Shown in pieces: positions 1,864 to 63,865 of a stretch of 64,000 nt of DNA (positions within the stretch are counted from its first letter, which is position 1; each line of letters begins with the position of its first letter). The position numbers were made by a program, and so were the translations under genes. Where the stretch lies: positions 18,017 through 82,016 of the IMG/VR virus record IMGVR_UViG_3300048507_000465. One strand, given 5' to 3'. The notes beneath the pieces were generated by a model. It made no database searches, was not told the origin of the DNA, and saw only the letters and a program-made list of their open reading frames with translations. Source of the DNA: a virus.

Positions 1864-2544
1864 ATGAAGCATATTAAATCAAAAGCTATATTTGAAAGAT
1901 ATACAAAACTAGATTCTATCTCTAATAAACTATTAGGTGATTGCTTTAGACAGTGGGTATTAGATTTTAAGAACGGTAAAAAATCTTCTAGCTACTCATT
2001 TGAAGTACAGAATCCAGGGTTAACATTTGACTTAAACTGCTCTATCTATTTTAAAGGTAAAGGATTTGAGGTCCTAAACTCTACTGGAGCTGATGGTAGA
2101 GATGAAGACGATGATGGTGATTGGCAAGATCCATTTATTAATGTAGACTTTGCTTGTAACCCAGATTGGTTACCTACTTATTGGGAAGAGATTTACTTTG
2201 TATTAGCAGATGTCTTAAGACATGAGATCGAACACATTACTCAAGATGGTATTGATATTGGTAATTATAGAAAGGGTAAACCTAATGAACCAGATGATAT
2301 GATGAGAATGATGATTAATAATGGTATGTTATCTAAGATGTATTATTTACTACTACCTAAAGAAGTGGATGCAAATTTACAAGGCTTAAGATTTGAGGCT
2401 AAGAAGAGAGGTGAGAAGACCATTGATGCTGTAAATAGATACTTAGACTCAAAAGAAGAGATGGGAGAGATAAATAGTAAAGAAAGAGCAGAAGTCCTAG
2501 TTAAATGGGAAGCTCGTGCAAAACAATTAGGATTTAAACTATGA
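1864..2544 (+). CDS. putative head-internal protein with HExxH zinc metallopeptidase motif
   Basis: N-terminus MKHIKSKAIFE; LRHEIEH plus downstream KEVDA (zincin-like third ligand). Confidence 0.65.
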   Translation: MKHIKSKAIFERYTKLDSISNKLLGDCFRQWVLDFKNGKKSSSYSFEVQNPGLTFDLNCSIYFKGKGFEVLNSTGADGRDEDDDGDWQDPFINVDFACNPDWLPTYWEEIYFVLADVLRHEIEHITQDGIDIGNYRKGKPNEPDDMMRMMINNGMLSKMYYLLLPKEVDANLQGLRFEAKKRGEKTIDAVNRYLDSKEEMGEINSKERAEVLVKWEARAKQLGFKL

Positions 2545-2831
2545 GACATTTAAAACAATTTAAAAACTTTATTAACGAGGGTGGAGACCCTGAAAAGAAA
2601 AAAGCTATTAGGGATAAAATACGTGACTTAGATAAAAAGGAAGATGACTTAATGAAGAAGAAGGCTGAAAACGCTAAGAAAATGATGGCGGAAGAAGATA
2701 ATCTAAAAGCAGAGATTTTAAACCTTACAACTCAGAAGTTAGCTATGCAGAAAGCTATAGTAAAAATAGATCTTAAAATATCTACACTTAAGCTTAAACA
2801 AGAAAACGCAAAACCAACACAAACAACATGA
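2541..2831 (+). CDS. Lys-rich helical putative head-internal protein
   Basis: N-terminus MRHLKQFKNFINE (capsid-targeting-like); coiled-coil composition. Confidence 0.65.
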   Translation: MRHLKQFKNFINEGGDPEKKKAIRDKIRDLDKKEDDLMKKKAENAKKMMAEEDNLKAEILNLTTQKLAMQKAIVKIDLKISTLKLKQENAKPTQTT

Positions 2832-3184
2832 AGCATTTAATTCATTTTAATGACTTTGTTTTAGAGAACAGAAAAAATAAACCCAATATTAAGAAAAAGG
2901 TTAAAAAGATTAATAAGGTTATTAATAAGCAGTATGATAAAATAGAAAAAGAAACTGCTAGGGCTAAAGAGTTAGCATCAAAACCTGATGTAACTGATAA
3001 AATGTCGGCTACTCTATCTAGAATGAAAGTACAACTAGCTCAAGCAGAAGCTCAGAAACAAGCTGTTAGAAAAAATGTGGAAATTAAAAAAGCTCAGATT
3101 AGAACTGCTAAAGATCAAGCTAAATCAGGTGATGAATTAGAAAAGAAAGCTAAAGAAACTAAAAAAGAAGAGTCTGATAAATAA
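2828..3184 (+). CDS. Lys-rich helical putative head-internal protein
   Basis: N-terminus MKHLIHFNDFVLE; very basic coiled coil. Confidence 0.65.
   Translation: MKHLIHFNDFVLENRKNKPNIKKKVKKINKVINKQYDKIEKETARAKELASKPDVTDKMSATLSRMKVQLAQAEAQKQAVRKNVEIKKAQIRTAKDQAKSGDELEKKAKETKKEESDK
3176..3183 (+). promoter_or_regulatory. putative late promoter GATAAATA
   Basis: Variant of the recurrent motif, 4 nt before ATG 3188. Confidence 0.6.
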
Positions 3185-3187
3185 CCT

Positions 3188-4864
3188 ATGAAGTATATTC
3201 AAACTCTTACTGAAAAGGGAAAGCTTAAATGGCAAGACTCTGATGCGCCGGATGCTAATGGTAGATTTAAAGACTTAAGTCCTAAAGATCTAGCAGCATG
3301 GTTAATTAAAACCAGAAAGGGTGATATGAAAAAGATTAGTGGTTCACTAAGTCAACAAGTTGCATTTAATAAAAACGACGATCCTGAATACGCAAAGAAA
3401 ATGGATAAGACTAGAACAGAAGTCTACAAGCAAATGGATAGAGAAGATCTATTAGAATCTGTCTTAAACGAAGAGGATTCATATAACGATTATCCAGCTG
3501 CTGCAAAGAAGAATGCACAGATGGCTATTGATTGGAAAGAGAAGTATGGTAGAGATGAAGTACCTGCTGGGACTCCAGTTGGTTGGGCAAGAGCTCATCA
3601 ATTAGCTAAAGGTGAAAAGATCTCAGCAGATACTGTAAAGAGAATGTCTGCATTTAATAGACACAGAAAAAATTCATCAATTGCACCAGAACATAAAGAC
3701 GAACCTTGGAAAGATAATGGCTATGTAGCTTGGTTAATCTGGGGTGGCGACGAAGGTGTTGATTGGGCAATTGAAAAATCAAAAGAAATAGACGCTATGA
3801 AAGAGTCAAAACAAATGAAGTACATTAAACCACTTAACGAAAGAGCTAAACACACATCAACTGATTTTTCTAAACCAGGTAACGATGGTGATATTTACTT
3901 TTCAAAAAGAGAAGGTGACGCAGTCGGCGTTAGATTAGGAGATAAATTACAAATGATTTATGTTTTTCAAGAAGAACCTAAATTAGGAAGGATTCAAAAG
4001 TCAGATAAACGTTGGGAAAACATGGGTCCAGCTTCTGAAGAACTTTTAATTGATTTAAGAGGTAGAGAAGAAGGTAAAATCTTATTTAAGTTTGTTTCTA
4101 CACTTGAAGAATCAGTTAATGAAGGTAAGATGCCGAAGAAATATATTGGCAACGATGAGATAGTCTATCTTAAAACTAAAGAGGATTCAAGAGGTGCTCA
4201 TTACAACCTTTACTACAAAGGGCACGATATTGATAAAGGTGGTCGTAGGTTTGGTAGTGAAAAAGAGCTAGAAGATTTTGCAGCTAATTATATTTTATCT
4301 AACCAATTGTATAAGAAACTAAGGTATGAAGATTCAATACCTTTACCAGAGTCTGTTAATGAAAGTCTTGGTTCTTATGAATATAATAAGTGGATTAAAG
4401 AGAATGGTAAAATTAAATACCCTAAATGGGTTACAGTAACTCGTAAAGAAATTATTAAAAAGGGATTAATGGATTCAGTATATGATTCTGAATCTCACAA
4501 CATGTCTATTTGGATTAACTCTTTAGGTAAGAATTTCTTTGTAATTAACGCTGACTCAAAGAAGAGAGAAAAAGAGTTTGGTAAAAACGGTTCTGCATTT
4601 ATTAATGCATATTACAATGATATAACTGGATATACCGCTTTTGCATGGGAAGCTGCTACAATTTGCCTAGAACTTATTAAACACATAGAGGACAGAATTG
4701 CTAATGGGGAGGAATATGAACCGGCGTACTATTTAGCTAAAGAATATTTTAATAATTTTGGGATGGATACTAAAAGAAGTAGAGTATTTGATTCTACAGT
4801 TAAAAAGCTAAGTAATTATATGGCTGATAATAATCTTGATTCTATGGATTATATGAATAGGTAA
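3188..4864 (+). CDS. modular putative head-internal polyprotein
   Basis: Starts MKYIQTLTE; modules separated by LESVLNE, MKYIKPLNE, EESVNE, PESVNE; one module has the VAWLIWGGD motif of a common phage head-associated domain. Confidence 0.7.
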   Translation: MKYIQTLTEKGKLKWQDSDAPDANGRFKDLSPKDLAAWLIKTRKGDMKKISGSLSQQVAFNKNDDPEYAKKMDKTRTEVYKQMDREDLLESVLNEEDSYNDYPAAAKKNAQMAIDWKEKYGRDEVPAGTPVGWARAHQLAKGEKISADTVKRMSAFNRHRKNSSIAPEHKDEPWKDNGYVAWLIWGGDEGVDWAIEKSKEIDAMKESKQMKYIKPLNERAKHTSTDFSKPGNDGDIYFSKREGDAVGVRLGDKLQMIYVFQEEPKLGRIQKSDKRWENMGPASEELLIDLRGREEGKILFKFVSTLEESVNEGKMPKKYIGNDEIVYLKTKEDSRGAHYNLYYKGHDIDKGGRRFGSEKELEDFAANYILSNQLYKKLRYEDSIPLPESVNESLGSYEYNKWIKENGKIKYPKWVTVTRKEIIKKGLMDSVYDSESHNMSIWINSLGKNFFVINADSKKREKEFGKNGSAFINAYYNDITGYTAFAWEAATICLELIKHIEDRIANGEEYEPAYYLAKEYFNNFGMDTKRSRVFDSTVKKLSNYMADNNLDSMDYMNR

Positions 4865-4885
4865 CATATAATAAAATATTAGCAA

Positions 4886-4914: not shown

Positions 4915-6171
4915 ATGGCTGTCGATCATACTAGAACTATAACTGTCACACCTGCTGGATCAAACTATACGGTAGTATCAGATGCTGCGATGGAATCTGG
5001 AGTTCAATGGGTTTCTACTACTAAAACTACTGATAATAATGGTGTTGCAGATGTTTGGACTATTACAATACAACAAAATACATCTAGTGGTAGAGTTGCT
5101 ACAATTACAGCGACACATAGCAATAATAATACTGATACTATAACTGTTAACCAGGCTGGAGTTAATCCGGATAATACTGCTCCTGTTATTACATTACTAG
5201 GAGATAGTTCAATAAGTGTTGATGTTGGTGCGTCTGACTGGATCGACGATGGTGCTACCGCCGTTGATGAAACTGATGGAGATATTTCTAATAATATACA
5301 AGTTGTAGATAATGTAGATCTTAACACAATAGGAGTTTATTCAGTTACATATAATGTAAATGATGCTGCCGGAAATCCTGCAGTAGAAGTTGTAAGAACT
5401 GTAAATGTTGTTGCTCAAACAATTGATGTACAATGGCAATTAATACCATTTAATTTAACTGGTGCATATATTAGCTTAACAGATGGCGGAGCGGAGTGGC
5501 AAGGTAGTCCTAGTCAAACAACAAGCGTTGCAAGCGGGGGAAGTCATACACAGTTTTTTTATGCAGTTCCAAATAATGGAAAAGTATTTAATACTACGTC
5601 GGATGTTCAATTTCAATCAGGAGGTGCTCAGGTAAGTACTTTAAAAACTGCAAATGGAAGTATTAAAATAGAATTAATATTAAACAATGTTACTTCAAAT
5701 GTTGTATGGAGTGAAAATATTTCAGGTACTGCGTATACAATACCTACAGCGGGTGCTATGGCTTTTAGAGAATTAACAAGTTCAGGCGGTACAAGTGTCG
5801 GAACTTATACTGGAGGTCAAGTTACTAATAGTGTTAGAAATTATCAATGGATTAATAATACAGGTACTGAAAATAATAATCAAGCTTTATTGATTAATCT
5901 AGAAGATGCTGGTGGAATTGATTTAACATGGGATCCTACAGAAACTAATGCACATAATTTAGCAGGATATGTTTATCTATCAACAAGCGCAGATGGTAGT
6001 ACTGTTGATAATTCTACTATTTTAAATACTAATGAATGGATTCATAATGTTAGTTTAAGTAATTCAGATGGAACTAATTCTACTGGAGACTTTCATGCCT
6101 CGTTTATTTTTGACGATGGTGATGATGGAACTATAAATCCAAATAACCAAACATTAAATAATCAAAATTAA
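4915..6171 (+). CDS. Ig-like virion surface protein: BACON + DUF5011/HYR-like domain
   Basis: W..NTSSGRVATIT..ITVNQAG (BACON-like); NTAPVITLLG..GATAVDETDGDIS..GVYSVTYNVNDAAGN..RTVNV (DUF5011/HYR-like). Confidence 0.75.
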   Translation: MAVDHTRTITVTPAGSNYTVVSDAAMESGVQWVSTTKTTDNNGVADVWTITIQQNTSSGRVATITATHSNNNTDTITVNQAGVNPDNTAPVITLLGDSSISVDVGASDWIDDGATAVDETDGDISNNIQVVDNVDLNTIGVYSVTYNVNDAAGNPAVEVVRTVNVVAQTIDVQWQLIPFNLTGAYISLTDGGAEWQGSPSQTTSVASGGSHTQFFYAVPNNGKVFNTTSDVQFQSGGAQVSTLKTANGSIKIELILNNVTSNVVWSENISGTAYTIPTAGAMAFRELTSSGGTSVGTYTGGQVTNSVRNYQWINNTGTENNNQALLINLEDAGGIDLTWDPTETNAHNLAGYVYLSTSADGSTVDNSTILNTNEWIHNVSLSNSDGTNSTGDFHASFIFDDGDDGTINPNNQTLNNQN

Positions 6172-6177: not shown

Positions 6178-6915
6178 ATGGTACAGGACGAAATAATAAG
6201 TGGACCAGTAACAACCCAATCAACCATTAGCTACTCCCCATCATATACTTTATCATATGATGCTAATGGCGGTACTGGCTCTATGGTTACACAAAGTGGT
6301 TCTAACCAGTATACCATCCATAATAGTTTTGGTTTTACTAGAAGTGGATACGTTCCTCAAAATATAGCATTTAATACTTCCGGAGCTGGTACTGGAACAA
6401 GTTATGATTTAGGTGATTCTATTACTCTAACAGGAAATACTACACTATATGCACAGTGGACTTTAACTGGAGGATCAAGTTCTTCAGGTGGAGATACATT
6501 TTACATATGCGTAACTCACCCCCTAGATGCTACTAAAAAAACTATTGTAGCATATACGACTCCTGTAATAGCTACAAACTTAAACTTTGCTTTTACTACA
6601 GCATCTCCTCAGAATGTAAGTAATAGCGCAGGCTCATTAACTCTGCAATTTAGTGCAGATTCTGCTCCTGCTATTGGAGATTTTAGTTCTACTGGTAGTT
6701 GGTTAACTATAGATCCTGCTACATATACGTTCTCTTCAGGAAGTGGATCGTTTAATGTTTCTTATGGCTCAAATTCTAGTTTATCAGGTGCGAGTAGTAG
6801 GAATAGTACTATATCCTATAATAATGTTTCTAATATCGGTACTTCGTCAGTGTTAGTTACACAAGCGGGGAATGTGGGTACCTACAATCCAAATGAAAAT
6901 GCCGGATTTGGCTAA
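6178..6915 (+). CDS. Ig-like surface protein: Listeria-Bacteroides (InlB B) repeat + C-terminal BACON-like domain
   Basis: YTLSYDANGGTG..TRSGY..GTSYDLGDSITLTGNTTLYAQW; C-terminal WLTI..SRNSTI..VTQAG. Confidence 0.75.
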   Translation: MVQDEIISGPVTTQSTISYSPSYTLSYDANGGTGSMVTQSGSNQYTIHNSFGFTRSGYVPQNIAFNTSGAGTGTSYDLGDSITLTGNTTLYAQWTLTGGSSSSGGDTFYICVTHPLDATKKTIVAYTTPVIATNLNFAFTTASPQNVSNSAGSLTLQFSADSAPAIGDFSSTGSWLTIDPATYTFSSGSGSFNVSYGSNSSLSGASSRNSTISYNNVSNIGTSSVLVTQAGNVGTYNPNENAGFG

Positions 6916-6958: not shown

Positions 6959-7582
6959 ATGGCAAAAAAAATACTATCATTCGAAGAATACGCTGCAAAA
7001 ATAAATGCACCTAACGTTTCTGAAGAAGAAAACGAAGAGTGCCCGTGTGGTACTGATGAAGAAGGTAACTGTTTAGAATGTGAAGAAGGAACAGAAAAAC
7101 CAGCTGAAGAAATAGAAGACGAAGAAGTTGAGTCTGAAGAAGACGAAGAAGTTGAGTCTGGAGAAGACGACGATGACGACGATGACGATGATGAAGAAGA
7201 CGATGATGACGATGACGACGACGATGATGATGACGATGATGACGATGATGAGTCTGAAGAAGTTGAAGTAGAAGATGCTGGAGAAACAGAAGCCCCGGTA
7301 ACTGTAGAAGAGATGTTATCTGAAGGTTACAAAAAAGTAGTTGAAGCTGCATGTGCTTACGAAAAAGACGAATACCAAGATCATACGTTAGAAATGTACA
7401 TGAAAGAGAACGCTGCTCTAGTAGCAACTCTTGCTGCAAAAGCGATGGAAGAGGGTTATGGTGAAGCAAAAGAAACTGAACTAACTCAAGAAATGTACGA
7501 AGCAGTATGTAACGAAATAAAAGATGCGTATTGTAAGAAAATTGAAGAGTTAAAAGAGACTTACGGTGCTGGAAAGGAATAA
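6959..7582 (+). CDS. highly acidic putative prohead core/scaffold-like protein
   Basis: MAKKILSFEEY start; long D/E tract; helical C-terminus. Confidence 0.6.
   Translation: MAKKILSFEEYAAKINAPNVSEEENEECPCGTDEEGNCLECEEGTEKPAEEIEDEEVESEEDEEVESGEDDDDDDDDDEEDDDDDDDDDDDDDDDDDESEEVEVEDAGETEAPVTVEEMLSEGYKKVVEAACAYEKDEYQDHTLEMYMKENAALVATLAAKAMEEGYGEAKETELTQEMYEAVCNEIKDAYCKKIEELKETYGAGKE
7115..7249 (+). repeat. 24-bp tandem duplication (EDEEVESE/G) followed by a GAY poly-Asp tract
   Basis: gaagacgaagaagttgagtctg at 7115 and 7139; gac/gat run 7166-7249. Confidence 0.85.
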
Positions 7583-7589: not shown

Positions 7590-8219
7590 ATGAAATTCAT
7601 AAAATCAATTAACGAATTAAACGAAGCACGTCAAGCCCCTGCTAAAAAACTATTTAAGATGGTAGTTAAAGGTAGCACTTCTGAAATTGAAGGTCAAAAG
7701 ATCTCTAAGGAAATGGCTCAAGCTGCATTAGACTGGTTTGATAGATCTACTTATGCTAGAAAATACGAAAAGCAGGTTAAGACTGCTGGTATGGGAGCTG
7801 TTGCTCCACTAATCTTTGGTGACTATTGGGGTATTAAGAAAACTATTCCTTCTAAACTTAAAGCAGAATTTAAAGAGCTACAACAAGTATATAAAAGAGA
7901 AATGGCAGCTGAGTCAATTTTAACTGAGTCAGATGCAACTCCTACAATGTTATTAGCTCAAGAGATTGAAGGTGCTGAATACCACATGGCTTTCTCAGAC
8001 GGTGGTATTGGTGTAGATGCTAGATCGACTAAGAAGACTTGGGAAGATGGAGTACCGGTACTTAAGTATATTGCAAGAGCACCTAAGAAATCAGTAGAAA
8101 TACCAAAGGGTAAATTTGAAGTAGTTATCGATGATAAATACGGATGGTACTACTGGGAGAACAAGGGTATCTGGTATGGAATGGAACAAGATGGAGAAGC
8201 ACCTCCATTTGAGTATTAA
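7590..8219 (+). CDS. putative two-module head-internal protein
   Basis: Likely start is ATG 7590 (MKFIKSINELNE) rather than GTG 7566; internal AESILTE linker. Confidence 0.65.
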   Translation: MKFIKSINELNEARQAPAKKLFKMVVKGSTSEIEGQKISKEMAQAALDWFDRSTYARKYEKQVKTAGMGAVAPLIFGDYWGIKKTIPSKLKAEFKELQQVYKREMAAESILTESDATPTMLLAQEIEGAEYHMAFSDGGIGVDARSTKKTWEDGVPVLKYIARAPKKSVEIPKGKFEVVIDDKYGWYYWENKGIWYGMEQDGEAPPFEY

Positions 8220-17324: not shown

Positions 17325-18629
17325 ATGGCTGATTTTACAAAAGGTATTAATGAATTTAGAAAGGGTACACGTCTTCGTAAAATAAACGAAGATCCTACGT
17401 ATCTTAGTTTCTTCTTTATGTTCGATGACCAGAGTAGAATGGAGTCTCCTCTTTTATCGGGAGCTGCTAGAGATTATTTAACTAAAGTGCTTAGATCAGA
17501 TGAGGGTAATAAATATGCTCAAAATCTAGATAACTTTAAAAAAGTACTTTTTAAAATTAATAAAGAACTGCCTTGGTTTTGGCAAACAGTTTCCGGGATT
17601 GATGCTGCATTGACATACCAAAAAATGATAGAGCCGTGGTGGGGTGCTGCAGATAATAAACTTGAAATTGAATGCTTAGAGGAAAATATAGAACTAACAG
17701 CATTTGGTTTAATGGATTTATATAAGAGAGCTTGTTTTGATTTTACAAGATGGGTTGAAGTAATACCACATAATCTTAGACATTTTACAATGTACGTTTA
17801 TATAACTGAAGTTAGAACAATACAACAAGATACTAACGCTCCTAACTTAGGTTTAAGAGATAATCCAGAAAGTGGTAATAATTCTTCTAGGTCAGCTCCG
17901 CCAGAAGGCAAGATTAAGGGAATAAACCCTGAAATGTCTTTAACTGCTAAACCATATATTAAATTAAAATTTGAACATTGTGAGTTTGATATTGATAGTA
18001 TCGCATCAATGTTTGCGGATATAAATAAAAACCCTGAGGCTGTAAAACCTAAAATTGCTATTAAGTGGAATAGTGTTAAACAGGTAGAACAAAAGCTAGG
18101 TGATAATTTAATTGTAGAAGAAGATAATAATACAATATCGGATGCAATACCTACTCCTGAAAAATATAATACAACACCACTTGACCCTAAAGATTATGTA
18201 CAAGGTAAATTAGATAGTGCTGTATCTGGTTTTACAGATGCTGCTAAATCTAAATTTGGTAATCTAAAAGATGGTATTGCAGGGGGTAATAATAGTGAAA
18301 TAGGTAATGCGTTTGGAGACTCTACCGGCGGATTAACAAGTGCTGCATTAAACGCAGCTGAAGAAAAGCTTTTATCTAAGTTATTTATGGGTAATGTCCA
18401 TGGTGTTAATTTAGGTAATATACAAAACGCTATTAGATCTGGAAGTATAAACGCATTAGGTAGTTTAGTTGGAGATTTAATAGGAGGCTTTGGAAGTGGA
18501 TCGTCTAGTGTTGGCGAAAAGGTATATAGCAGTACATTTAATAATGATGAATTAGGAGATGAAAGTGTTTACGAGCCGGGTGTTGATTCATCTGCTGATG
18601 GTAACTTAAACGATAACGTACATGAATAA
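17325..18629 (+). CDS. putative tail-tube-like baseplate protein
   Basis: Context; N-terminal beta-rich tube-like domain (PWFWQTVSG..IECLE..FEHCEF) and Gly-rich C-terminus. Confidence 0.5.
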   Translation: MADFTKGINEFRKGTRLRKINEDPTYLSFFFMFDDQSRMESPLLSGAARDYLTKVLRSDEGNKYAQNLDNFKKVLFKINKELPWFWQTVSGIDAALTYQKMIEPWWGAADNKLEIECLEENIELTAFGLMDLYKRACFDFTRWVEVIPHNLRHFTMYVYITEVRTIQQDTNAPNLGLRDNPESGNNSSRSAPPEGKIKGINPEMSLTAKPYIKLKFEHCEFDIDSIASMFADINKNPEAVKPKIAIKWNSVKQVEQKLGDNLIVEEDNNTISDAIPTPEKYNTTPLDPKDYVQGKLDSAVSGFTDAAKSKFGNLKDGIAGGNNSEIGNAFGDSTGGLTSAALNAAEEKLLSKLFMGNVHGVNLGNIQNAIRSGSINALGSLVGDLIGGFGSGSSSVGEKVYSSTFNNDELGDESVYEPGVDSSADGNLNDNVHE

Positions 18630-27035: not shown

Positions 27036-28865
27036 ATGGCAGAATTAAAATTTTTATCAAGCGTCAGAGCTACCGCGAATCAAATTAAAACAGATTCGCG
27101 TACATATATCTCAAGGGTATACAAAAGAGCTGATACGCTTTTTACCGAGGCATCACCATTTGCTCAAATAATTTCAGTATTTTCTGAGTTATATGAGTTA
27201 ATAATGTTTTATATAGAGGATGCGCTCGTAGAACAAAACATATATACAGCACAACAGGCAGAATCCATATATGGAATGTCTAGGCTTACTGGACATGATG
27301 CAACTAGGGGTTTTGCAGCTACTGGAGAAATTCAATTTAGATGGAAGCCAGGAGCAGACTTAAGTAAAATAGCTGGAACTGGTTTAAATATAGATTCTAG
27401 GGCAGAATTAAAATTTGATGTAAATGGTTTAACATATACATTACTTACGTCTAAAGATAGATTTAGATTAGAAAAATCTAATATGACTCAAATTACTACT
27501 CCAATTATACAAGGTCAGTTTGAATCTCAAACTTTTACTGGAACTGGTGAAAACTTACAGTCCTTTAATATACAAACAGTATCTTTAACTGATCATTCTA
27601 AAGTTAGCGTATCTGTTAATGGAGAACGATGGGCTAAACACGAGTCGTTATATGATTTATTAAATAATGAAAAGGGCTATTTATTAAAAACAGGAATTTC
27701 AGGTGGAATAGATTTGTATTTTGGCAACGGTGCGTTCGGCGCAGTTCCAATTGCAGGGTCAGCAATAGAAGTAGAATATGTTAAACATGTTGGATTTTCT
27801 GGAAATTTAGATGACGGGCAAGATCTTACTGTAAAATGGGATGCGGATGGTACAGATTCATTAGGTAACGAACATGACCTAAATGAATATTTAGATGTTA
27901 CTATTACTTCATCACCAAAGATGGGAGCAGATAGAGAGTCTACTGATTTTACTAAAATTATGACACCTCTCGCTAGTAAATCTTTTGTTTTAGCAACACC
28001 AGATAATTATGAATACTTCTTATCAAGATATGGTTTATTCTCGTATATAGATGCCTATAATACTACATCAGACCAATATTTAGATGATGATAATGTTATC
28101 TACATATTTGCAGTGCCGGATGTAAAAAGAAAATTAGCAAAGTCACAGGATTATTTTTCTATCCCGGAGAACGAAATGTTTTTTGACCAAAATGAATATG
28201 ATAAAATGTCTAAAGTATTACAGGATAGTGGACAACAAATGGTAACTACTGAAGTTGTGTTTGTTCAGCCTAAGGTTAGAAAATATAGTATGGATATTAA
28301 TGTTAGATATTTTGAAGGGTTTACAAAACAAGAAATATTTACAGATATTAGAGCGAAGGTAAGTGATTATCTTTTAAATATTACTAGAAGGGATAAATTA
28401 CCAAAGTCTGATATTATTTATATTTTAGAAGAGATAGAAGGCGTGGATGCTGTTAACGTTAGATTTATATCTGAGACTGAAGAAACTGCTAGAAGGTTGG
28501 GTTATTTTGAATCTAAAACTATTTCTGTAGTTCCACAAGAGCCTGTTATTTTAGAAGAGATTGGAAATGGAAAGCAAAAGTATATTTTCTTTAAGCAAGT
28601 TGAAGAGGTTCAAACCGTAAAGGTCGATGATACGACACAGATACCATATACAGTAGCAGGTTTAGATGAGTGGGGAGATATTATTATGGAGAAAGAAGAA
28701 GTTGCAGTATTTAGAGGTGGATGGCAAGATAGAGATGGTGACGATATAGTAGATGAAGCATTAATAAATGCTGAAGCTGCACTAAGTGTTAATTTTGACG
28801 AAACACCAGTACCTAGAACTATTTATACTAGAGTTCAGGCTGGAAATAGAAAAGCATTGAAGTAA
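27036..28865 (+). CDS. baseplate wedge protein gp6/J-like
   Basis: Follows gp25; TAQ..SIYGMSRLTGH, LYFGNG.FG..P, GADRES, LATPDNYE, IEGVDAVNV. Confidence 0.82.
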   Translation: MAELKFLSSVRATANQIKTDSRTYISRVYKRADTLFTEASPFAQIISVFSELYELIMFYIEDALVEQNIYTAQQAESIYGMSRLTGHDATRGFAATGEIQFRWKPGADLSKIAGTGLNIDSRAELKFDVNGLTYTLLTSKDRFRLEKSNMTQITTPIIQGQFESQTFTGTGENLQSFNIQTVSLTDHSKVSVSVNGERWAKHESLYDLLNNEKGYLLKTGISGGIDLYFGNGAFGAVPIAGSAIEVEYVKHVGFSGNLDDGQDLTVKWDADGTDSLGNEHDLNEYLDVTITSSPKMGADRESTDFTKIMTPLASKSFVLATPDNYEYFLSRYGLFSYIDAYNTTSDQYLDDDNVIYIFAVPDVKRKLAKSQDYFSIPENEMFFDQNEYDKMSKVLQDSGQQMVTTEVVFVQPKVRKYSMDINVRYFEGFTKQEIFTDIRAKVSDYLLNITRRDKLPKSDIIYILEEIEGVDAVNVRFISETEETARRLGYFESKTISVVPQEPVILEEIGNGKQKYIFFKQVEEVQTVKVDDTTQIPYTVAGLDEWGDIIMEKEEVAVFRGGWQDRDGDDIVDEALINAEAALSVNFDETPVPRTIYTRVQAGNRKALK

Positions 28866-50753: not shown

Positions 50754-51122
50754 ATGAAAACATTTAATGATTATTTAGTTGAGCAACAATTGACTGAAAC
50801 AGATATGCAACTTTTACAAGAAGGACTTCAACAAGAGTGGACTCAAGATTTAGAAGATAAAGTTGACTTTGCTTTAGAGCAATTCGTACAACAATACCAA
50901 AAAGAAGATGGTACTTTTGAATTGGATAGATTAGAAGAAGCTTTTGTAAATGAAGGGCTTTTGGGTTCTATCTTTGGTGGTTTAGCTGGATTTGCTTTAG
51001 GTAAATCTGTTGGTAAAGTTATTGCTAAAGTACTTGGTATTCAAAAAGGTATTTTCTACGATTTATTAACATCTCGTTTAGTCGGTGCCGCGCTAGGTGC
51101 TGCAATGGGTAAAAGAATGTAA
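50754..51122 (+). CDS. putative head-internal protein with C-terminal glycine zipper
   Basis: MKTFNDYLVE (cf. T4 CTS MKTYQEFIAE); VNE site followed by GLLGSIFGGLAGFALG..VGAALGAAMG. Confidence 0.65.
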   Translation: MKTFNDYLVEQQLTETDMQLLQEGLQQEWTQDLEDKVDFALEQFVQQYQKEDGTFELDRLEEAFVNEGLLGSIFGGLAGFALGKSVGKVIAKVLGIQKGIFYDLLTSRLVGAALGAAMGKRM

Positions 51123-56974: not shown

Positions 56975-58888
56975 ATGGGATCAATAAAATTAAAATCTTT
57001 TTCTTCATTTGCACATAGCCACAAAATAGACGCTGCTGCTAAATTAGAAGAAGAAAAAATGCTTGCTAGAAATAAGGCAGCAGATAAATTTAAAGCATTA
57101 CTAAATGACTTTAATGTAACTTCAATTAAAGAACTTAAAGAAGATGATAAAAAATCTTTTTTTTCTAAATTAGGGAATTCTGAAATATCAGAGTCTTTAG
57201 CAATTATTGAAGAGGGAACAAGATCTCAAATCGGTAAAATCAAAAAGAACGGAAAAATCTCAACAGTGTATATGCACTATGATGGTTACCCAGACCATAT
57301 GTTACCTACAATTAAAAAGGGTTACAAAGATGGAAAGGCAGTAGACACTCTACTGAAGAAAGGGGGTGGTTCAGGTCTAGAAGTAAATGTAGACGATATT
57401 AAATTCTACGGCGACAAGACCACTACTGACGGGAATATGAAAGATACTGAGAAGTTTGTAAAAGACGCTGCTAATAACGGCGGAGCTGAATTCATCTACC
57501 TATATTCTGAAAGAGATTCTAAATGGTACATGGTTGATGTTTATGACAGTTACGATTTAGTTCCAGCATTTGAATCTATGATAATCAATGAATCATTTAA
57601 ACCAAGTAAAGGTAACGCAAGAGACGCAAAGAAGGTTTCTAAGTTTTTAAATACATTCTTTATGAAGCATTCTGCAATTGCAAACTCTGAAAGTTTTTTA
57701 GGAGCATGCAGATACTTATTATCTGAGTCATTAACAGACGCTAACTTCCACTCATACAGAGACCCAGTAAGTAAAGCACTAGGGGGTAAGATTAGTACTA
57801 TTATGGTAGATGTTGAAAGCCTGGGTGGTATGTCATTACCAATCGGTAAGAAAACACTTATGAACTTATTAGACGAACACTATTCTGGTGTAGCTAATGC
57901 AGCTGGATGGTCAGGTATCGGTATTGTTGAAGGTATGGCATTATTCTTAGATGGATTTGGTTACTCTCAACCAGCACAAAAAATAGTAGATGCATTTAAT
58001 TTAATATGGGCTAATGAGTCTGTAATGAATGAAGGTAATGCATTTTTAGCAGCAAGAGCGAAAGCGATTGAAGAAGATGCTGAAGAATTTGAATTTAACG
58101 GCAAGAAATTTCCTGTGATTAAAGAGGACCTAGAAATTGAAGAGGTTACAGAAGGCGATACTGCTAAAGTTTCTAAAAAAGAAATTCAATTCCATTTGGA
58201 TGCGTTTGAAAAAGGAGATATTGAAGGTGAGGATTTAGCACAAGCTATTGGAGAAATACTTTATGGTAAGTTAAGAGAAAGCGATAAAGCTCAAGACCCA
58301 GGGGAAGAAGTTCCAGGTGGTGAAGAGTCTGATGAAACTGAAGAGCAATTTCCAGATGATTTTGATGCAACAAATCCTGCTGAAATGGGCAAGATGACTA
58401 ATGAAGATGAAGTTACTGAAGCTAAATTCGTAAAAGATTTTGATAAAGATGTTTTAGATGCTGAAACCAAAGCAGATATAACAACTTATTATCCATCAGC
58501 TAAATTCTTTATGGGTAAAATGACACACTTCTTTGGAGAACTAGAACCAAACTTATTCTTTAAAGCTTACTATGCTAAATACTATAAAGAAGATACAGGC
58601 AAGAAAATTGATGGTGAATTTAAAATCACTTCAATCTATTCTGAAAAGGGTAGTAGATATGTAAACCTATATGTTGAATCTGCAGATACGGTAGAAGCTC
58701 CAACAGTAAATGAAGCTGAAGTAAAATCAGATGAAGAATTTAAAGAGTATGCATTCACTGTTTTAGGAAAAGCATTTGGAGATAAATTTGACGAAGAAAA
58801 AGCACAAGAAGTAGTAGACGGTTTATTGTCTAAGCATGGTGACGATTATGGAGCCGCTGTTGGCGCATTAACTGCATCATTAGGATAA
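56975..58888 (+). CDS. modular putative head-internal polyprotein
   Basis: Modules separated by IEE/INE/MNE/VTE/VNE linkers; includes TRSQIG..YMHYDGYP and EGNAF..EFEFNGKKFPV modules. Confidence 0.7.
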   Translation: MGSIKLKSFSSFAHSHKIDAAAKLEEEKMLARNKAADKFKALLNDFNVTSIKELKEDDKKSFFSKLGNSEISESLAIIEEGTRSQIGKIKKNGKISTVYMHYDGYPDHMLPTIKKGYKDGKAVDTLLKKGGGSGLEVNVDDIKFYGDKTTTDGNMKDTEKFVKDAANNGGAEFIYLYSERDSKWYMVDVYDSYDLVPAFESMIINESFKPSKGNARDAKKVSKFLNTFFMKHSAIANSESFLGACRYLLSESLTDANFHSYRDPVSKALGGKISTIMVDVESLGGMSLPIGKKTLMNLLDEHYSGVANAAGWSGIGIVEGMALFLDGFGYSQPAQKIVDAFNLIWANESVMNEGNAFLAARAKAIEEDAEEFEFNGKKFPVIKEDLEIEEVTEGDTAKVSKKEIQFHLDAFEKGDIEGEDLAQAIGEILYGKLRESDKAQDPGEEVPGGEESDETEEQFPDDFDATNPAEMGKMTNEDEVTEAKFVKDFDKDVLDAETKADITTYYPSAKFFMGKMTHFFGELEPNLFFKAYYAKYYKEDTGKKIDGEFKITSIYSEKGSRYVNLYVESADTVEAPTVNEAEVKSDEEFKEYAFTVLGKAFGDKFDEEKAQEVVDGLLSKHGDDYGAAVGALTASLG

Positions 58889-58908
58889 AATAAATCTAAA
58901 AACTTCTT

Positions 58909-60180
58909 ATGAAGATATACACTAATTTTACAGAATTTTTAAACGAGAAACTCCAGGTAAACAACTTGGAGGATTTCGTATTTGAAGGTGGGGCAGCAGG
59001 GCATATGATGCACCCTTTCGATGACCACTCATTAACTTTTGCAGATTTCAAGACTATTGTTAAATCTTCATTACAAGGTGGTTTAGATTTCGAAGAGGCT
59101 GCAACTGAAAAGACTGATGGTCAAAACCTATTTGCAACTGTAAAAGATGGTCAAGCAATGTTTGCTAGAAATAAAGGGCAAATGATAAATCCACTAGACC
59201 TAAATGGTATCATTAAGATGTTTACTGGCCACGCGTCAAAGCTGGTTGAAGAAACATATATCTTTGCTGCTAAAGATCTAGCAGAGGCGCTCCCAGCGCT
59301 TAAGGATCAATCAATGTTCGCGAACGGATTGAATTTCGTTAATATGGAACTAATTTACTCTAAAAACCCTAATGTTATCTATTATGACAGAGATGTTATT
59401 CAATTTCATGGTATTGTAGAGACTGATGGTGAAGGTAATCAAACTGGAAAGCAAAATATTGCTACAGAACTAGTTAAAGCTCTTAAAGAATTAAAGTCAG
59501 ATGTTCAAAAGACGTTTACAATAATTCCCCCTCAAATTTTAAAGTTAGGAAAAGACATTAACTTTGATGAGAGAGTCGGCTATTACGAAAAGGCGATAAA
59601 TAAACTGAGAGATACTTATAGTCTATCAGATCAAGATGAGGTTAAAATGTATCACGAGATGTGGTGGAGAGGCCAAATCGAAGAGAACTTTGCAGACCTA
59701 GAACCGGCACATAAAGAGGGTTTACTTTTAAGATGGGCTTACTTAGATAAGAAGACACTTAAGTTAACTGCATTAAAGAAGGAATTAACACCGGAACAAA
59801 ATAAGGCTGTTAAAGATTTTGATGGTCAAAGAAATAAGAAGTATAAAGAAAACATTTTACCTTTTGAGAATCTATTTTTAGAGTTAGGTGCAGATGTTTT
59901 AAAGAACGCTTCTAATTTTGTAGCTGCTAATCCAGATGCTGAGAAAGCAAGATTACATAATCAGATTAGAACTGAAGCTGGCAAGATTAAAAAGAATGGC
60001 GACCTTACTCAAATTGAAAAGGTTGAAAAAGAACTAAAAAGACTAGAGGGAATTGGTGGTATTGAGTCGATCATCCCAACAGAAGGAGTGGTCTTTAAAT
60101 TTAAAGGAAAAACCTTTAAACTAACAGGTACTTTTGCTGCGATTAATCAGCTAATGGGTATCATAAAATACGGAAGATAA
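58909..60180 (+). CDS. RNA-ligase-like covalent nucleotidyltransferase with capsid-targeting-like N-terminus
   Basis: MKIYTNFTEFLNE; EGGAAGHMMHPFD; EKTDG (motif I), EGVVF (IV), KLTG (V). Confidence 0.65.
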   Translation: MKIYTNFTEFLNEKLQVNNLEDFVFEGGAAGHMMHPFDDHSLTFADFKTIVKSSLQGGLDFEEAATEKTDGQNLFATVKDGQAMFARNKGQMINPLDLNGIIKMFTGHASKLVEETYIFAAKDLAEALPALKDQSMFANGLNFVNMELIYSKNPNVIYYDRDVIQFHGIVETDGEGNQTGKQNIATELVKALKELKSDVQKTFTIIPPQILKLGKDINFDERVGYYEKAINKLRDTYSLSDQDEVKMYHEMWWRGQIEENFADLEPAHKEGLLLRWAYLDKKTLKLTALKKELTPEQNKAVKDFDGQRNKKYKENILPFENLFLELGADVLKNASNFVAANPDAEKARLHNQIRTEAGKIKKNGDLTQIEKVEKELKRLEGIGGIESIIPTEGVVFKFKGKTFKLTGTFAAINQLMGIIKYGR

Positions 60181-62039
60181 TGGCATTACAGAATCTAAAA
60201 AAATATTTTGAAGGAGCTAATTCTAATGAGATTATGGATCTACTTAACAATAAGTGTATTGTTACAGAAAAAATAGATGCATCATCTTTTCATGTAAAAA
60301 GAGATAATACAGAAATATTATATTACAAGTCCGGCGAGAAACATAGTATGAATAGAATAGATCGTACTATTGTAAGATATTATGAAAACGCAATTAGGCA
60401 TTTTAAATCTATTTCAGAAGATTCTATTAAAGATATGCCTTTTGATTGGAAGTTCGGATTTGAGTATTTAGGAGATAACAAAACTATTGATATAGAATAT
60501 GATACTTTACCAAAGAATAACTTAGTATTAACCCATATTCAAGTTTTACAACCTTCTAATCCTAATAAAGTTAGAAAGGTAATTAGAGATACTAAAATTT
60601 TAAATAAATGGGCAGATATACTAAATGTAGCGCCACCGCCTGTTATTTTTGAAGGACTTTTACATTCAGGTCAAAAATCCGCTATTATAGATATTTTAGA
60701 AACTAGTATAAATGAGTTTGAAGATAGATTTGAAAACCCTGATAACCCTTCGTTTACTAGAGTGGTATATAATATTTTTAATGAAAATCAAAAGGCATCT
60801 GCTTTAATGAATGATTTATCAAAAGATGTATCTGGGTTTATTATTAATTTCCACGATGGTAAAAAGATAATACCTTTTGTTTTAGAAAAATTTAATAAAA
60901 AATCAAAAGTAGAAAGAAAACCATCTGACATGTATCAGATTTCTATATTAGATATGGTTGAACATTTTTCACAATTTGATATTGAATCTTTAGAATTAAA
61001 AAGCGAAGAATCAGATTCTAGATATTTAGAATTAATGTCTATAATGTTTAATGATTATATAAAAAGTAATGCTACAAAATATATTGGAGCTAAATTTGAT
61101 TCTGCAGATTTTGCAGAATCTCCAATGTTTGAATTAAATCATAAATTCTTAACAAACGAAAAAACATTAACTTTAGTACAAGATAAAATATTATCTGAGT
61201 TATTTAAAATTGCATTAGGTAGTTTTAGAAGAAAAAGACAAAAAGAAACAGATTTAATTAATATAGATCTTATGAATGAATTAAATTCTATTATTGATAA
61301 AATAGAAAGTAAGGCTATTGCTAAAGCTAACGAAGGGGATGTCCTTAATTTTAAACAATACTTGGTAAACCAAAAAATATCTGCTGAAGTAAAACCGGTT
61401 ATGGAAGCTTTAAAAGTAGACCATCCAGAAAAAGGTAAACAATTAGTAAATATGTTTGTTGGTAGATTCCAACCATTTACATTAGGACATGCTAAAGTTG
61501 TAGAAACAATCCATAAACAAAATGGTTACCCTGTAGTTATTCTATTAGTTAAAGCTAAGAATAAGAAAAAGGAAGATTCATTTAAGAGACCTTATGATGA
61601 GGCAACTCAAGTGGCTATGATAAACAGATTAAAGGGTAAATTACCTATTGAAGATATTTTTGTAATTCCAACTGGAGGCATTGATACCATGTTTAATGCA
61701 ATGCGACCTAAATACGAACCGGTATTATGGGGAACAGGAAGCGATAGAATGAAGACCTATGGTTATCAAGTAGATAAACAAGAATATAGAGATGCTCTAG
61801 ATGTTAGAGATGATTTTGGTTTATTTGAAATACCTAGAACAGGAAAGAACATATCGGCAACTCAAGTAAGAAATGCAATGTTAGATGGTGATGAGAAGCT
61901 CTTTAAGAAGTTAACTCCTAGACCACTACATAATATGTATGCTGAGTTAAAACAAAAATTAGAGGACTCGATGGGAGTTATGGCAGAATCTACAGAAGTA
62001 GAGTTCTTAACCTTCGATGATTTTATTAAGAATATATAA
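60180..62039 (+). CDS. ligase-like N-terminal domain fused to a HIGH-family (cytidylyltransferase-like) nucleotidyltransferase
   Basis: TEKIDASS; C-terminal GRFQPFTLGH, GSDR, ISATQVR. Confidence 0.7.
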   Translation: MALQNLKKYFEGANSNEIMDLLNNKCIVTEKIDASSFHVKRDNTEILYYKSGEKHSMNRIDRTIVRYYENAIRHFKSISEDSIKDMPFDWKFGFEYLGDNKTIDIEYDTLPKNNLVLTHIQVLQPSNPNKVRKVIRDTKILNKWADILNVAPPPVIFEGLLHSGQKSAIIDILETSINEFEDRFENPDNPSFTRVVYNIFNENQKASALMNDLSKDVSGFIINFHDGKKIIPFVLEKFNKKSKVERKPSDMYQISILDMVEHFSQFDIESLELKSEESDSRYLELMSIMFNDYIKSNATKYIGAKFDSADFAESPMFELNHKFLTNEKTLTLVQDKILSELFKIALGSFRRKRQKETDLINIDLMNELNSIIDKIESKAIAKANEGDVLNFKQYLVNQKISAEVKPVMEALKVDHPEKGKQLVNMFVGRFQPFTLGHAKVVETIHKQNGYPVVILLVKAKNKKKEDSFKRPYDEATQVAMINRLKGKLPIEDIFVIPTGGIDTMFNAMRPKYEPVLWGTGSDRMKTYGYQVDKQEYRDALDVRDDFGLFEIPRTGKNISATQVRNAMLDGDEKLFKKLTPRPLHNMYAELKQKLEDSMGVMAESTEVEFLTFDDFIKNI

Positions 62040-62058
62040 ACAAATATAACATAATACT

Positions 62059-62454
62059 ATGAAAAGAATAGATACATTTGAAGCATTTACTCATAACACA
62101 GTTAATGAGAAAATAGCACTTGGATCTTACTACTTTAGTAAATACGCATTTGATGGTTTTGATTTACCAGCTAAAGGTGAAACTAGTTTCGCTTTAGTGC
62201 TACACAATACTGTAGAAGTAAATGGAGAATCAATGTATTTAAGATCTAAAAACGACCATAATGTTGGAGCTGGATTTAGACCTAAGGTTGTAACTGTTGC
62301 TGCAGATCAAGCATCTATAGAAGAAGCATATAAAACTCATGTAAAAATTGGAGGTAAAGGTGCAAACCTTTCAATCTCTTATGGATCATTTATTGTCAAG
62401 GGACAAAACTGTGCATATACAGAAATTGATGGTATAACAAAAAAGCTTAAATAA
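62059..62454 (+). CDS. putative head-internal protein (paralog A)
   Basis: MKRIDTFEAF..VNE; LPAKGET. Confidence 0.7.
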   Translation: MKRIDTFEAFTHNTVNEKIALGSYYFSKYAFDGFDLPAKGETSFALVLHNTVEVNGESMYLRSKNDHNVGAGFRPKVVTVAADQASIEEAYKTHVKIGGKGANLSISYGSFIVKGQNCAYTEIDGITKKLK

Positions 62455-62456
62455 TT

Positions 62457-62873
62457 ATGAAAAGAATAAAAACATTCGAAAGCTTTACTGGTAATAGTCG
62501 ACCAGTAAATGAAGCGACACCATACGGATATAAATACTACGATGGTTACTATGCATACAAGTGGGCGTATGATGACATGGGAGACTTTCTTCCTGCTAAA
62601 GGAGAAACTTATTGGCTAGTAAAAGCATATAATGAGGTATTATGTGACGGCGATAAGATAAAACTAGACGAAGGAAACGGATATATGACAAGACACATAG
62701 GTGTTTACAAAACCGAAGAGGAAGCAAAGAAAGTATATGATAAGGTAGTTAAAGAACGTCCTTTTAAAACTGAGATTTCATTTTCAATGGGAACATTATA
62801 TGCTAAAACTAAATTTGCCCGTGAGTATAACGAGACAGAAGGCGTTATGGGTAAAGTTAAAATAATGAGATAA
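62457..62873 (+). CDS. putative head-internal protein (paralog B)
   Basis: MKRIKTFESF..VNE; LPAKGET. Confidence 0.7.
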   Translation: MKRIKTFESFTGNSRPVNEATPYGYKYYDGYYAYKWAYDDMGDFLPAKGETYWLVKAYNEVLCDGDKIKLDEGNGYMTRHIGVYKTEEEAKKVYDKVVKERPFKTEISFSMGTLYAKTKFAREYNETEGVMGKVKIMR

Positions 62874-62875
62874 CC

Positions 62876-63865
62876 ATGAAAAAATTCGAAGATTTCTTAA
62901 AAGAAGGTAAAAAGATACAAATTAAAAGAAGGTATACTGAGAACCATCCTGCTTCAACAGTAGGTAAAACTGCTAGCGTAAGAAACGCAGTACTTAAAGC
63001 AGTTAAAGATGGTGTAATCACAGAAGAAGAGTTTACTAAAATACTTTCTGAATTATCTGGTGACCATAGACAGTGGAGAACTAGAAATACAAAATATTTT
63101 AACGTTTCTGAAGAGGGTATTAAACTTTCAAAGTGGGGTCTTAGAATTTTAGCTGAATTAGATGAAGAACCTAAAGCTGCTGGGGTATTCGAAGCTACAG
63201 TAGTTATGGATGCAATGGATCCTAAATCAAAGATACTTAAAAAACTTTTAAAGAAACATAAAGTTACAATGAAAGTTTTAGATCCTAGTGGACCGAGTGG
63301 TTGGCCAGAAGTTGAGCTAACAGGTTCAAGAGAAGATCTACAATCAGTTTTAGCATCTCCTGATGGATGGGACGATCCAGAACTTGGAGAGTATATCGAA
63401 GAGTCAGCAGTTAATGAGAAGATCAAAGTTACTAAAGACGAATGGCCTTATATTGAATTTAAAGATGGTGGTAAAAAGCACAAAGTAGAATTTGATTACG
63501 AAGATATTATCGATGACCATGGTAACGAGGGTCAAGATCAATACTGGATCGGTAAAGATGAAGATGGTCAAGAATGGCAAATAGACGTTTCTGCTGATTA
63601 CAGGGGTGAAGTAATGGAGGTGTGGTTTGATACTTTAATAGTAGCAGAGAATAAGTTAGCAATTACCGAAAAATATGAAGTTATTTTTAGTGACGGTATA
63701 GTTCAAGGTAAAAAATTCAAACGCGAACAACAAGCACTTGATTTTATGAAGAAGGAGATTGCTTCTAATAAAAAACTAAGAGATATTGCAGTTTACAAAC
63801 CAGGAATGCACTCAACTACTCAAACTGAATTAGTTGTTAAATTCTGGGGAGACGGATCCTACTGA
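62876..63865 (+). CDS. modular putative head-internal polyprotein; may continue past an in-frame TGA
   Basis: MKKFEDFLKE; linkers VFE, ESAVNE, ITE; frame stays open for 45 codons after TGA 63863-63865 to the window end. Confidence 0.7.
   Translation: MKKFEDFLKEGKKIQIKRRYTENHPASTVGKTASVRNAVLKAVKDGVITEEEFTKILSELSGDHRQWRTRNTKYFNVSEEGIKLSKWGLRILAELDEEPKAAGVFEATVVMDAMDPKSKILKKLLKKHKVTMKVLDPSGPSGWPEVELTGSREDLQSVLASPDGWDDPELGEYIEESAVNEKIKVTKDEWPYIEFKDGGKKHKVEFDYEDIIDDHGNEGQDQYWIGKDEDGQEWQIDVSADYRGEVMEVWFDTLIVAENKLAITEKYEVIFSDGIVQGKKFKREQQALDFMKKEIASNKKLRDIAVYKPGMHSTTQTELVVKFWGDGSY

Follow-up and report, generated by a model that had tools for sequence, protein, structure and literature searches.

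A shared N-terminal tag on unrelated late proteins of an uncultured T4-like phage lineage is probably a capsid targeting propeptide

The DNA analyzed here, referred to as the window, is a stretch of 64,000 nucleotides comprising bases 18017-82016 of the linear 82,016-bp IMG/VR record IMGVR_UViG_3300048507_000465 (the source genome). Between 10 and 15 late proteins of this fragment, otherwise unrelated, carry a short N-terminal tag with the consensus M-K-x-(I/V/L)-K-x-F-E-x-F-(I/L/V)-N-E. A 10-residue form of T4 length and forms with a spacer also exist, and counted from Met1 the tag covers 9-19 residues. The tag is real and goes far beyond chance. Sequence comparisons suggest that it is probably a short amphipathic load-and-cut propeptide like the capsid targeting sequence (CTS) of phage T4. 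The preliminary description of the window had proposed such a tag, and every computational test able to contradict the proposal favoured it; packaging, cleavage and injection of the tagged proteins are steps that we infer. Genes are named below by their start position in the window, or by 'genome' followed by the position in the whole record.

The window has a GC content of ~33% and nearly all of its genes lie on one strand behind A/T-rich leaders without Shine-Dalgarno sequence. It encodes T4-type proteins (a gp32-like single-stranded DNA-binding protein, UvsW-like and DinG-like helicases, UvdE) and contains an extended block of tail and baseplate genes, among them those for a gp6-like wedge and a gp5-like hub. 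CheckV estimated the completeness of the 82,016-bp record at ~30%. The source is a giant (jumbo) T4-like myovirus, probably of a Bacteroidota host. Nucleotide and protein searches of an isolate-phage collection yielded no close cultured relative; the best matches, at 31-34% identity, came from a Microcystis phage and from two huge phages known from metagenomes. With the 423-aa protein 58909 as query, 80 related IMG/VR loci were retrieved. The relatives are bS21-encoding jumbo phages predicted to infect Bacteroidetes, and the tag goes unmentioned in their description (PMC9723584). Two of the 80 are important in the following: G002, a complete genome of 256,444 bp with terminal repeats, and G006, which is 98% identical to the source at the 423-aa protein and runs past the window end.

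All 12 N-termini that had been listed as tagged were found at their reported positions (Table 1). To avoid circularity, the signal was taken from the relatives: a gapped hidden Markov model (HMM) was trained on 132 of their tags, leaving out those of the source genome. At a threshold of at least 8 bits, 9 of 92 N-termini of the source genome were recognized compared to none of 440 internal-Met decoys; in G002, the corresponding values were 28 of 335 and 3 of 1,320. Genes 58909, 50754, 2541, 62876, 62457, 2828 and 6959 scored at least 10 bits. Three further tag-type N-termini are located in the 18 kb upstream of the window, a region in which genome 9960 (20.8 bits) and genome 6337 (11.8 bits) also reached this value. 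An ungapped position-specific scoring matrix (PSSM) built from positions 2-13 of the G002 tags reached at least 12 bits at 21 of 335 N-termini versus 4 of 74,305 internal windows in G002, and at least 6 bits at 5 of 92 N-termini versus 1 of 24,728 internal windows in the source genome. Judged by profile scores against internal decoys, the tag is confined to the extreme N-terminus. In the flanks of the 80 relatives, 172 of 1,171 distinct proteins (~15%) were tagged, as opposed to 0.36% of internal Met positions. The 112 distinct tags display F/Y at positions -6 and -3, I/L/V at -2 and an invariant Glu at position 0.

An AT-rich genome, with its many codons for Lys, Ile, Phe, Asn and Glu and its frequent MK starts, might produce such N-termini by composition. 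The background of a loose regular expression was indeed ~3% among internal Met windows and 2.1 +/- 1.4 hits among the shuffled N-termini of the source genome. Because of this background and of false positives (a helicase and a baseplate hub), it was replaced by the profiles, and the 8-bit threshold separates the source N-termini from the decoys completely. Moreover, the exact degenerate DNA pattern for MKHIKLFE(Q/E)F occurs in at least 120 stretches in IMG/VR, and the tag is kept across orthologues of 50-98% identity. More than 20 genes of G002 open with MKHIKLFEQF(I/V/L)NE, 17 of which form one unbroken array. Chance resemblance, to which we give next to no credence, is excluded by the PSSM and HMM decoy tests and the IMG/VR pattern matches.

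The sequences behind the tag had been described as mostly unrelated. Consistent with this, an all-versus-all BLAST of 41 post-tag sequences returned orthologue pairs and the paralogue pair 62059/62457 only. The claim that replication and baseplate genes lack the motif also held: no replication, tail or baseplate gene exceeded 3.5 bits with the HMM. An equal frequency of the motif in early/replication proteins had been named beforehand as a refutation. The DinG-like helicase (8861-10594) begins with MLERGIAEIINE, which ends in I-N-E, contains no aromatics and scores below 1.6 bits; this I-N-E start is probably due to chance.

The link to T4 was examined at the level of single positions. MKTYQEFIAE, which had been cited as the tag of T4 internal proteins (Ips), was confirmed as the start of ipIII and ipII. 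In the CTS of IPIII, residues 4 and 7 serve targeting and residues 8 and 10 serve processing (PMC9026906), and the spacing -6, -3, -2 and 0 of the tag corresponds to exactly these positions. In a blind test, the first 24 residues of all 311 T4 open reading frames (ORFs) were ranked with the HMM derived from the uncultured lineage only. Gene 61.1 came first, followed by ipIII (13.4 bits), ipII (13.3 bits) and ipI (8.9 bits), so that the three validated T4 internal proteins were recovered within the top 4 of 311. The top-ranking gene 61.1, which outscores ipIII and ipII, encodes 54 aa starting with MKTFKEFIKE and lies at 18966-19130 on the minus strand of the T4 record.

Peptidase_S77, the family of the T4 prohead protease gp21, was present in 14 of the 15 tagged records examined. 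All five large relatives examined first had both S77 and Gp23. S77 also occurred in four of five further relatives, the exception being a 34%-complete fragment, and in all five large contigs chosen solely for the exact tag pattern. In G006, ~32 kb beyond the window end, genes for a Gp20 portal (244 bits), a tagged 113-aa protein, a protease-scaffold and Gp23 follow each other in this order. The arrangement matches 20-67-68-21-22-23 of T4, the tagged protein taking the gp67/68 slot, and G002 has the same head arrangement. The 113-aa protein opens with MKIYKTFEEFITE, and its ATG is preceded by GATATATA at a distance of 4 nt. The protease-scaffold is a 726-aa fusion of S77 and scaffold. In its scaffold half, RVNE immediately follows the protease domain, and (I/L/V)AE sites are numerous, some of them within tag-like helices. 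The Gp23 capsid protein opens with MANLINE, a predicted cut site followed by A; the form in the relatives is MA(N/Q)LINE, again with the predicted cut before A. A second S77-like match, a 132-aa open frame far from the main protease gene, was observed in three relatives (G012, G013 and G014). It may be a protease paralogue as in SPN3US-like phages.

These findings bear on the idea that the tag is a recognition leader for a machine other than the capsid, for instance a modifying enzyme, a chaperone or a degradation or export system. As described above, the lineage profile recognizes experimentally validated T4 CTS proteins; in addition, a Sec or lipoprotein signal would be less polar than the tag. 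A radical-SAM gene was present in one of five records, compared to S77 in 14 of 15, and a radical-SAM-linked leader was rejected since the complete G002 with its ~28 tags has no such gene. We regard a leader for another machine as very improbable.

The motif GATA[AT]ATA, which we take to resemble a T4 late promoter, is located exactly 4 nt before the ATG of seven genes of the source genome, five tagged and two baseplate genes (Fisher p = 0.001). These are 1864, 3188, 17325, 27036 and 50754 in the window, and genome 6337 and genome 9412. In G002, it stands ahead of the 17-gene array, in front of the first gene, as well as ahead of three further tagged genes and of one gene for a baseplate hub. 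If the motif is a -10-type late promoter element, almost no leader is left at this distance. The preliminary description had placed the tagged genes in blocks headed by a late motif, which is true at 1864, 3188 and 50754 and does not apply to the block 56975-62876.

A signal at the mRNA level was considered as well. The first 13 codons might be a translation-initiation enhancer for late messages without Shine-Dalgarno sequence, the peptide being a by-product. Both the missing Shine-Dalgarno sequences and the A/T-rich leaders would suit such an element, as would the position of the relatives among bS21-encoding phages (PMC9723584), a lineage that encodes ribosomal proteins. A codon alignment of 26 tags points in the other direction. 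Conserved residues vary synonymously (Phe TTT/TTC 14:8 and 13:10, His CAC/CAT 7:6, Asn AAT/AAC 11:5), and at position -2 Ile, Leu and Val are swapped by first-base changes with the middle T retained. Information content is low upstream of the ATG and drops directly after the invariant Glu codon. The codon patterns and this drop demonstrate that selection acts on a peptide, sharply bounded on its C-terminal side, and not on an element of RNA or DNA. Variation is free at third-codon positions and at the first position of the I/L/V codon as long as the amino-acid class is kept; what never varies is a Glu at a set distance from two aromatic residues. Furthermore, the motif recurs within ORFs at module joints, far from any start, and structural late genes do without it. 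Based on the codon patterns and the internal copies, the mRNA element was rejected and is, in our judgement, highly unlikely.

If the tag acts as a T4-type CTS, its aromatic half, with F at positions -6 and -3 relative to the Glu, would attach the protein to the prohead core or scaffold during assembly. Once the shell has closed, the gp21-type S77 prohead protease would cut after the Glu of (I/L/V)-x-E. The cut would free the mature protein inside the head, from where it could exit with the DNA at infection. Proteins 3188, 56975 and 62876 are strings of modules joined by the same site and would be cut into separate pieces. Alignments indicate that the relatives exchange modules exactly at (I/L/V)-x-E joints. 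The module of 3188 that follows LLESVLNE corresponds to a stand-alone 230-aa gene of G002 (73% identity), with subject residue 1 aligned to query residue 93. The stand-alone 72-aa gene that matches the last module of 56975 has a tag of its own, MARLLGFNDFLNE, and in the alignment the end of this tag coincides with that of TVNE. In 62876, the module behind LIVAE matches the N-terminal region of another protein, directly beyond the tag MNFNEFLNE of that protein. Homologues of 1864 are either tagged or fused behind another module via ...KF(V/I)ME and ..VFE, with a boundary after each. Tagged proteins contain eight internal (I/L/V)NE sites, as opposed to 2.6 +/- 1.5 in shuffles (maximum 7 in 1,000). 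No enrichment was seen in untagged proteins (22 sites versus 18.6 +/- 4.2 in shuffles).

As the tag sits on 10-15 unrelated late proteins, the source phage probably carries a large set of injected proteins that can be read from sequence. Seventeen consecutive tagged genes lie on one strand of G002 (193196-200277) behind a single GATAAATA, including Tad3-like, Acb1/2H-like and zeta-kinase-like genes. The G002 gene 199513-200277 matches the type I Thoeris inhibitor Tad3 (PF25185) with 68 bits at a cut-off of 27 and opens with MKTVKLFEEFLAE. The match in another relative (G003) reaches 79 bits, and the protein opens with MMKKVKLFEEFLAE. Both Tad3-like genes are flanked by other tagged genes. The match of a tagged gene to Acb1/2H phosphoesterase, with 28 bits, is just above the cut-off. 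Tagged genes of the relatives also match zeta/AAA_33 kinase and GNAT, the latter among the tagged genes of G002. In the window, a cut at the EEAFVNE site of 50754 would set free a Gly-zipper membrane peptide. Tad3 binds and blocks the Thoeris sensor ThsB (PMC13728456), and the T4 proteins Ip1-3, which have only the leader in common, are injected and inhibit GmrSD type IV restriction enzymes (PMC12373910). Since Tad3 inhibits ThsB and the T4 Ips are injected anti-defence proteins, tagged cargo of this kind fits a known logic. In the literature searched, the coverage of which was incomplete, we found no description of Tad3 or Acb1 as virion-packaged or CTS-tagged. In the T4 record (23591-24410), packaged ipI adjoins 57B, which is annotated as 'RNA ligase' and is presumably the Acb1 gene; in G002 the Acb1-like gene is itself tagged.

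The tag might be a true targeting and cleavage signal of the prohead core and yet mark mostly assembly parts, which are degraded and expelled at maturation. This is the fate of the core and scaffold parts gp22, gp67 and gp68 during T4 maturation. One tagged protein occupies the gp67/68 slot beside the protease, and the scaffold itself contains tag-like helices ending in (I/L/V)AE. Protein 6959 is extremely acidic and of low complexity, like a scaffold or core filler. On the other hand, many tagged proteins resemble enzymes or inhibitors (an RNA-ligase-like fold in the window; Tad3, Acb1-like, kinase and GNAT proteins in the relatives) and would be poor disposable scaffold. Moreover, the tagged set varies greatly among the relatives, which is reminiscent of the T-even Ip loci and unlike core assembly genes. 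As an account of most tagged proteins, disposal at maturation appears rather unlikely. It is the likely fate of 6959 and of the gp67/68-slot protein and an improbable one for the enzymes.

Several observations weigh against a CTS-type function. The tags of 1864, 3188, 7590 and 56975 are degenerate and, like that of 62059, score inside the decoy range. Outside support exists for 1864, 62059, 7590 and 56975, in the last case for the aromatic half only; the first 9 residues of 3188 are supported by neither orthologues nor paralogues, and its tag stays weak. Capsid, portal, terminase and protease genes were not found on the 82-kb contig, nor were S77 protease, Tad3 or Acb1, and head genes and protease are known from relatives only. 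The block 56975-62876 lacks the late-promoter-like motif. The tagged proteins are mostly acidic or neutral and not basic. About 28 cargo species per genome, as counted in G002, are far more than the three Ips of T4 and the at least ten reported from T-even phages (PMC12373910). Single internal sites cannot be called with confidence because (I/L/V)-x-E is short and common everywhere (~15 per 1,000 residues in the source proteome). Finally, we infer every step after translation.

Table 1. Tagged genes of the window and two untagged late-gene markers. Positions refer to the window; HMM, score of the N-terminus with the model trained on relatives.
Gene	Coordinates	Strand	Product	N-terminal tag	HMM (bits)	Upstream motif and internal sites
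1864	1864..2544	+	226-aa protein with HExxH	degenerate, MKHIKSKAIFE (nt 1864-1896)	6.1	GATATATA 4 nt upstream
2541	2541..2831	+	96-aa basic protein	MRHLKQFKNFINE (nt 2541-2579)	15.5	
2828	2828..3184	+	118-aa basic protein, isoelectric point (pI) 10.1	MKHLIHFNDFVLE (nt 2828-2866)	14.1	
3188	3188..4864	+	558-aa multi-module protein	weak, MKYIQTLTE	7.0	GATAAATA 4 nt upstream; sites SVLNE (3464-3472), ESVNE (4115-4123), ESVNE (4355-4363); internal tag-like MKYIKPLNE (ATG 3815, site 3833-3841)
6959	6959..7582	+	207-aa very acidic protein, pI 4.1	tag-like, MAKKILSFEEY	10.4	
7590	7590..8219	+	209-aa protein	diverged, MKFIKSINELNE (nt 7590-7625), weak by profile	<1.6	
17325	17325..18629	+	untagged baseplate-block gene, late-gene marker			GATAAATA 4 nt before ATG
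27036	27036..28865	+	untagged gp6-like baseplate wedge gene, late-gene marker			GATAAATA 4 nt before ATG
50754	50754..51122	+	122-aa protein, Gly-zipper hydrophobic C-terminal peptide after second site	10 residues, MKTFNDYLVE	17.5	GATATATA 4 nt upstream; second site EEAFVNE (50946-50954)
56975	56975..58888	+	637-aa multi-module protein	tag-like, MGSIKLKSFSSF...KLEE	4.5	sites MIINE (57584-57592), SVMNE (58025-58033), TVNE (58706-58714)
58909	58909..60180	+	423-aa RNA-ligase-like protein (DUF6267-like)	MKIYTNFTEFLNE (nt 58909-58947)	23.8	
62059	62059..62454	+	131-aa protein	two-part, MKRIDTFEAF + spacer + VNE (nt 62059-62109)	7.1	
62457	62457..62873	+	138-aa protein	MKRIKTFESF + spacer + VNE (nt 62457-62513)	14.6	
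62876	62876..63865	+	329-aa multi-module protein	10 residues, MKKFEDFLKE	15.3	sites ESAVNE (63410-63418), LIVAE (63641-63649)

Pfam and PHROGs searches with the tagged window proteins assigned no function, and PDB sequence searches with 58909 and 1864 gave no matches. The payload had been described as containing a peptidase and ligases. In the case of the putative peptidase 1864, the tag is backed by orthologues, which open with canonical MKHIKLFEQFINE-GRR and have the predicted cut site in between. In the AlphaFold model, the first 13 residues have low confidence and lie outside the fold. The peptidase identity rests on HExxH, conserved without exception in 25 sequences. Over the full length, the fold was matched best by catalytic domains of M1 aminopeptidases with Z scores of only 4.3-5.4, Foldseek returned nothing below an E-value of 0.1, and the ESM Atlas gave only weak zincin-type leads below 0.9.

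The ligase claim held in part, for one of two neighbours. Protein 58909 is tagged and RNA-ligase-like. The tag is followed by a variable spacer and a second site ending at the invariant E26, just before the invariant GGAAGHMMHPFDD. Its orthologues have the same order: tag, spacer of 0-40 residues, an invariant Glu preceded by hydrophobic residues, and then directly GGAAGHMMHPFDD. EKTDGQN, which has the KxDG pattern of the motif I lysine of covalent nucleotidyltransferases, is invariant in 24 orthologues. Residues 1-32 of the AlphaFold model have low confidence and lie outside the fold, and the structural match begins at about residue 28. VIA gave a Z score of 8.2 to a Naegleria RNA ligase (root-mean-square deviation 4.5, 189 aligned residues) and of 7.4-8.0 to Trl1 and T4 Rnl1; ligases filled all the top rows. 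The Foldseek E-value was only 7e-3, and there was no Pfam hit; DUF6267 was present in ~21-24% of members of the ESM Atlas neighbours. The ligase-like/cytidylyltransferase protein 60180, its neighbour, carries no tag. This 619-aa protein (60180-62039) follows directly after 58909 and combines an N-terminal ligase-type EKIDxSSF (EKIDGSSF in G006) with a C-terminal cytidylyltransferase-like (NMNAT-type) domain (PF01467, 36.5 bits). The two genes constitute a tagged/untagged pair of ligase-like enzymes.

Orthologues and paralogues provide information on the remaining tagged genes. The mature part of the 2541 product has a pI of 9.6, and no family match was found. The 6959 product contains a run of ~50 nearly unbroken Asp/Glu residues, and its orthologue in G002 opens with MAKLKTFEQYVSE; it may be a core or scaffold-type part rather than delivered cargo. 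ATG 7590 is likely the true start and not GTG 7566, since it lies 8 nt past the upstream stop. The C-terminal 87 residues of 7590 show 39% identity to the G002 gene 177713, which opens with MKYIKLFEDFLNE. Among orthologues of 50754, the 10-residue form MKTFNDYLVE alternates with the 13-residue form MKDTKTFNQYLVE. Orthologues of 56975 have 397-667 aa and read MGSLKLQSFEDFA...KLEE, which is the aromatic half of the tag only. Gene 62059 is a paralogue of 62457, and its orthologues keep MKxIKTFExF...VNE with a spacer of variable length. Orthologues of 62876 have 621-830 aa and differ in their downstream modules. Between tagged blocks, two untagged proteins with Ig-like (PF16403) and Listeria-Bacteroides repeat domains are encoded at 4915-6171 and 6178-6915; they may be virion surface or decoration proteins.

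A wider proposal, in which our confidence is somewhat less than even, is that a widespread uncultured lineage of jumbo T4-like phages, probably with Flavobacteriia-type hosts, pre-loads its capsid with dozens of tag-addressed and protease-released proteins. Among these would be counter-defence proteins made in advance: a Tad3-like inhibitor of ThsB, an Acb1-like cyclic-nucleotide phosphodiesterase, a kinase and an acetyltransferase as well as an RNA ligase and a membrane peptide, all acting before phage transcription. The (I/L/V)-x-E site would serve as an evolutionary plug that lets cargo modules move from polyproteins to single genes and back. Provided that the tag functions like its T4 counterpart, sequence alone would label the proteins that an uncultured phage carries into the cell (its 'injectome'), amounting to ~8% of the genes of the complete relative and ~15% of the proteins in the flanks of the 80 relatives. 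This would provide a shortlist for new anti-defence and host-takeover proteins, and known inhibitors such as Tad3-like and Acb1-like proteins could be delivered pre-made. Module exchange at protease sites would be a rule of cargo evolution. Tag and protease are also a candidate orthogonal protein-packaging system, comparable to the T4 CTS in engineered capsids.

The principle is established for T-even phages, in which a CTS on diverse injected proteins and variable Ip loci are known. Like the T4-type CTS, the tag is a predicted propeptide that occupies the N-terminal 10-19 residues of proteins without further relationship, with aromatics at -6 and -3, I/L/V at -2 and Glu at the cut. As in T4, the genes for a gp21-family protease, the Gp20 portal and the Gp23 capsid protein share one order in the relatives. 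In contrast to T4, the commonest tag has 13 residues, with three extra residues after MK and a strong Asn at -1. A spacer frequently separates aromatic half and cut site, giving an extended or two-part tag, and a second site often precedes the folded domain. The tag is found on ~28 genes (8%) of the complete relative G002 instead of on three Ips, the cargo includes large enzymes and multi-module chains with modules swapped at the cut site, and the protease is fused to the scaffold in the relatives. The three T4 Ips were validated experimentally, whereas the present lineage is known from sequence alone. No account of this tag family in Bacteroidota or bS21 phages was found in the literature searched, the coverage of which was incomplete, and priority is unproven.

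The T-even Ip loci (Repoila et al. 1994, via PMC12373910) are similar in that unrelated small genes with an anti-defence role share only the leader and turn over fast; their counterparts are the 17-gene array of G002 and the variable tagged sets among the relatives. The lineage described here differs in being uncultured and environmentally widespread, with likely Bacteroidota hosts, and in that tagged proteins of the relatives match other known anti-defence families (Tad3, Acb1-like). The jumbo phages phiKZ, 201phi2-1 and SPN3US also have a gp21-related protease that cuts after Glu and many internal head proteins with multiple sites per precursor (PMC5694885). The mature part of an ejection protein of such phages begins with a membrane helix (PMC5694885), to which 50754 is comparable. 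However, these phages use the motif A/S/G-x-E and propeptides of mostly >100 residues without a shared short tag (PMC5694885), whereas the tag of the source lineage is short, shared and T4-like.

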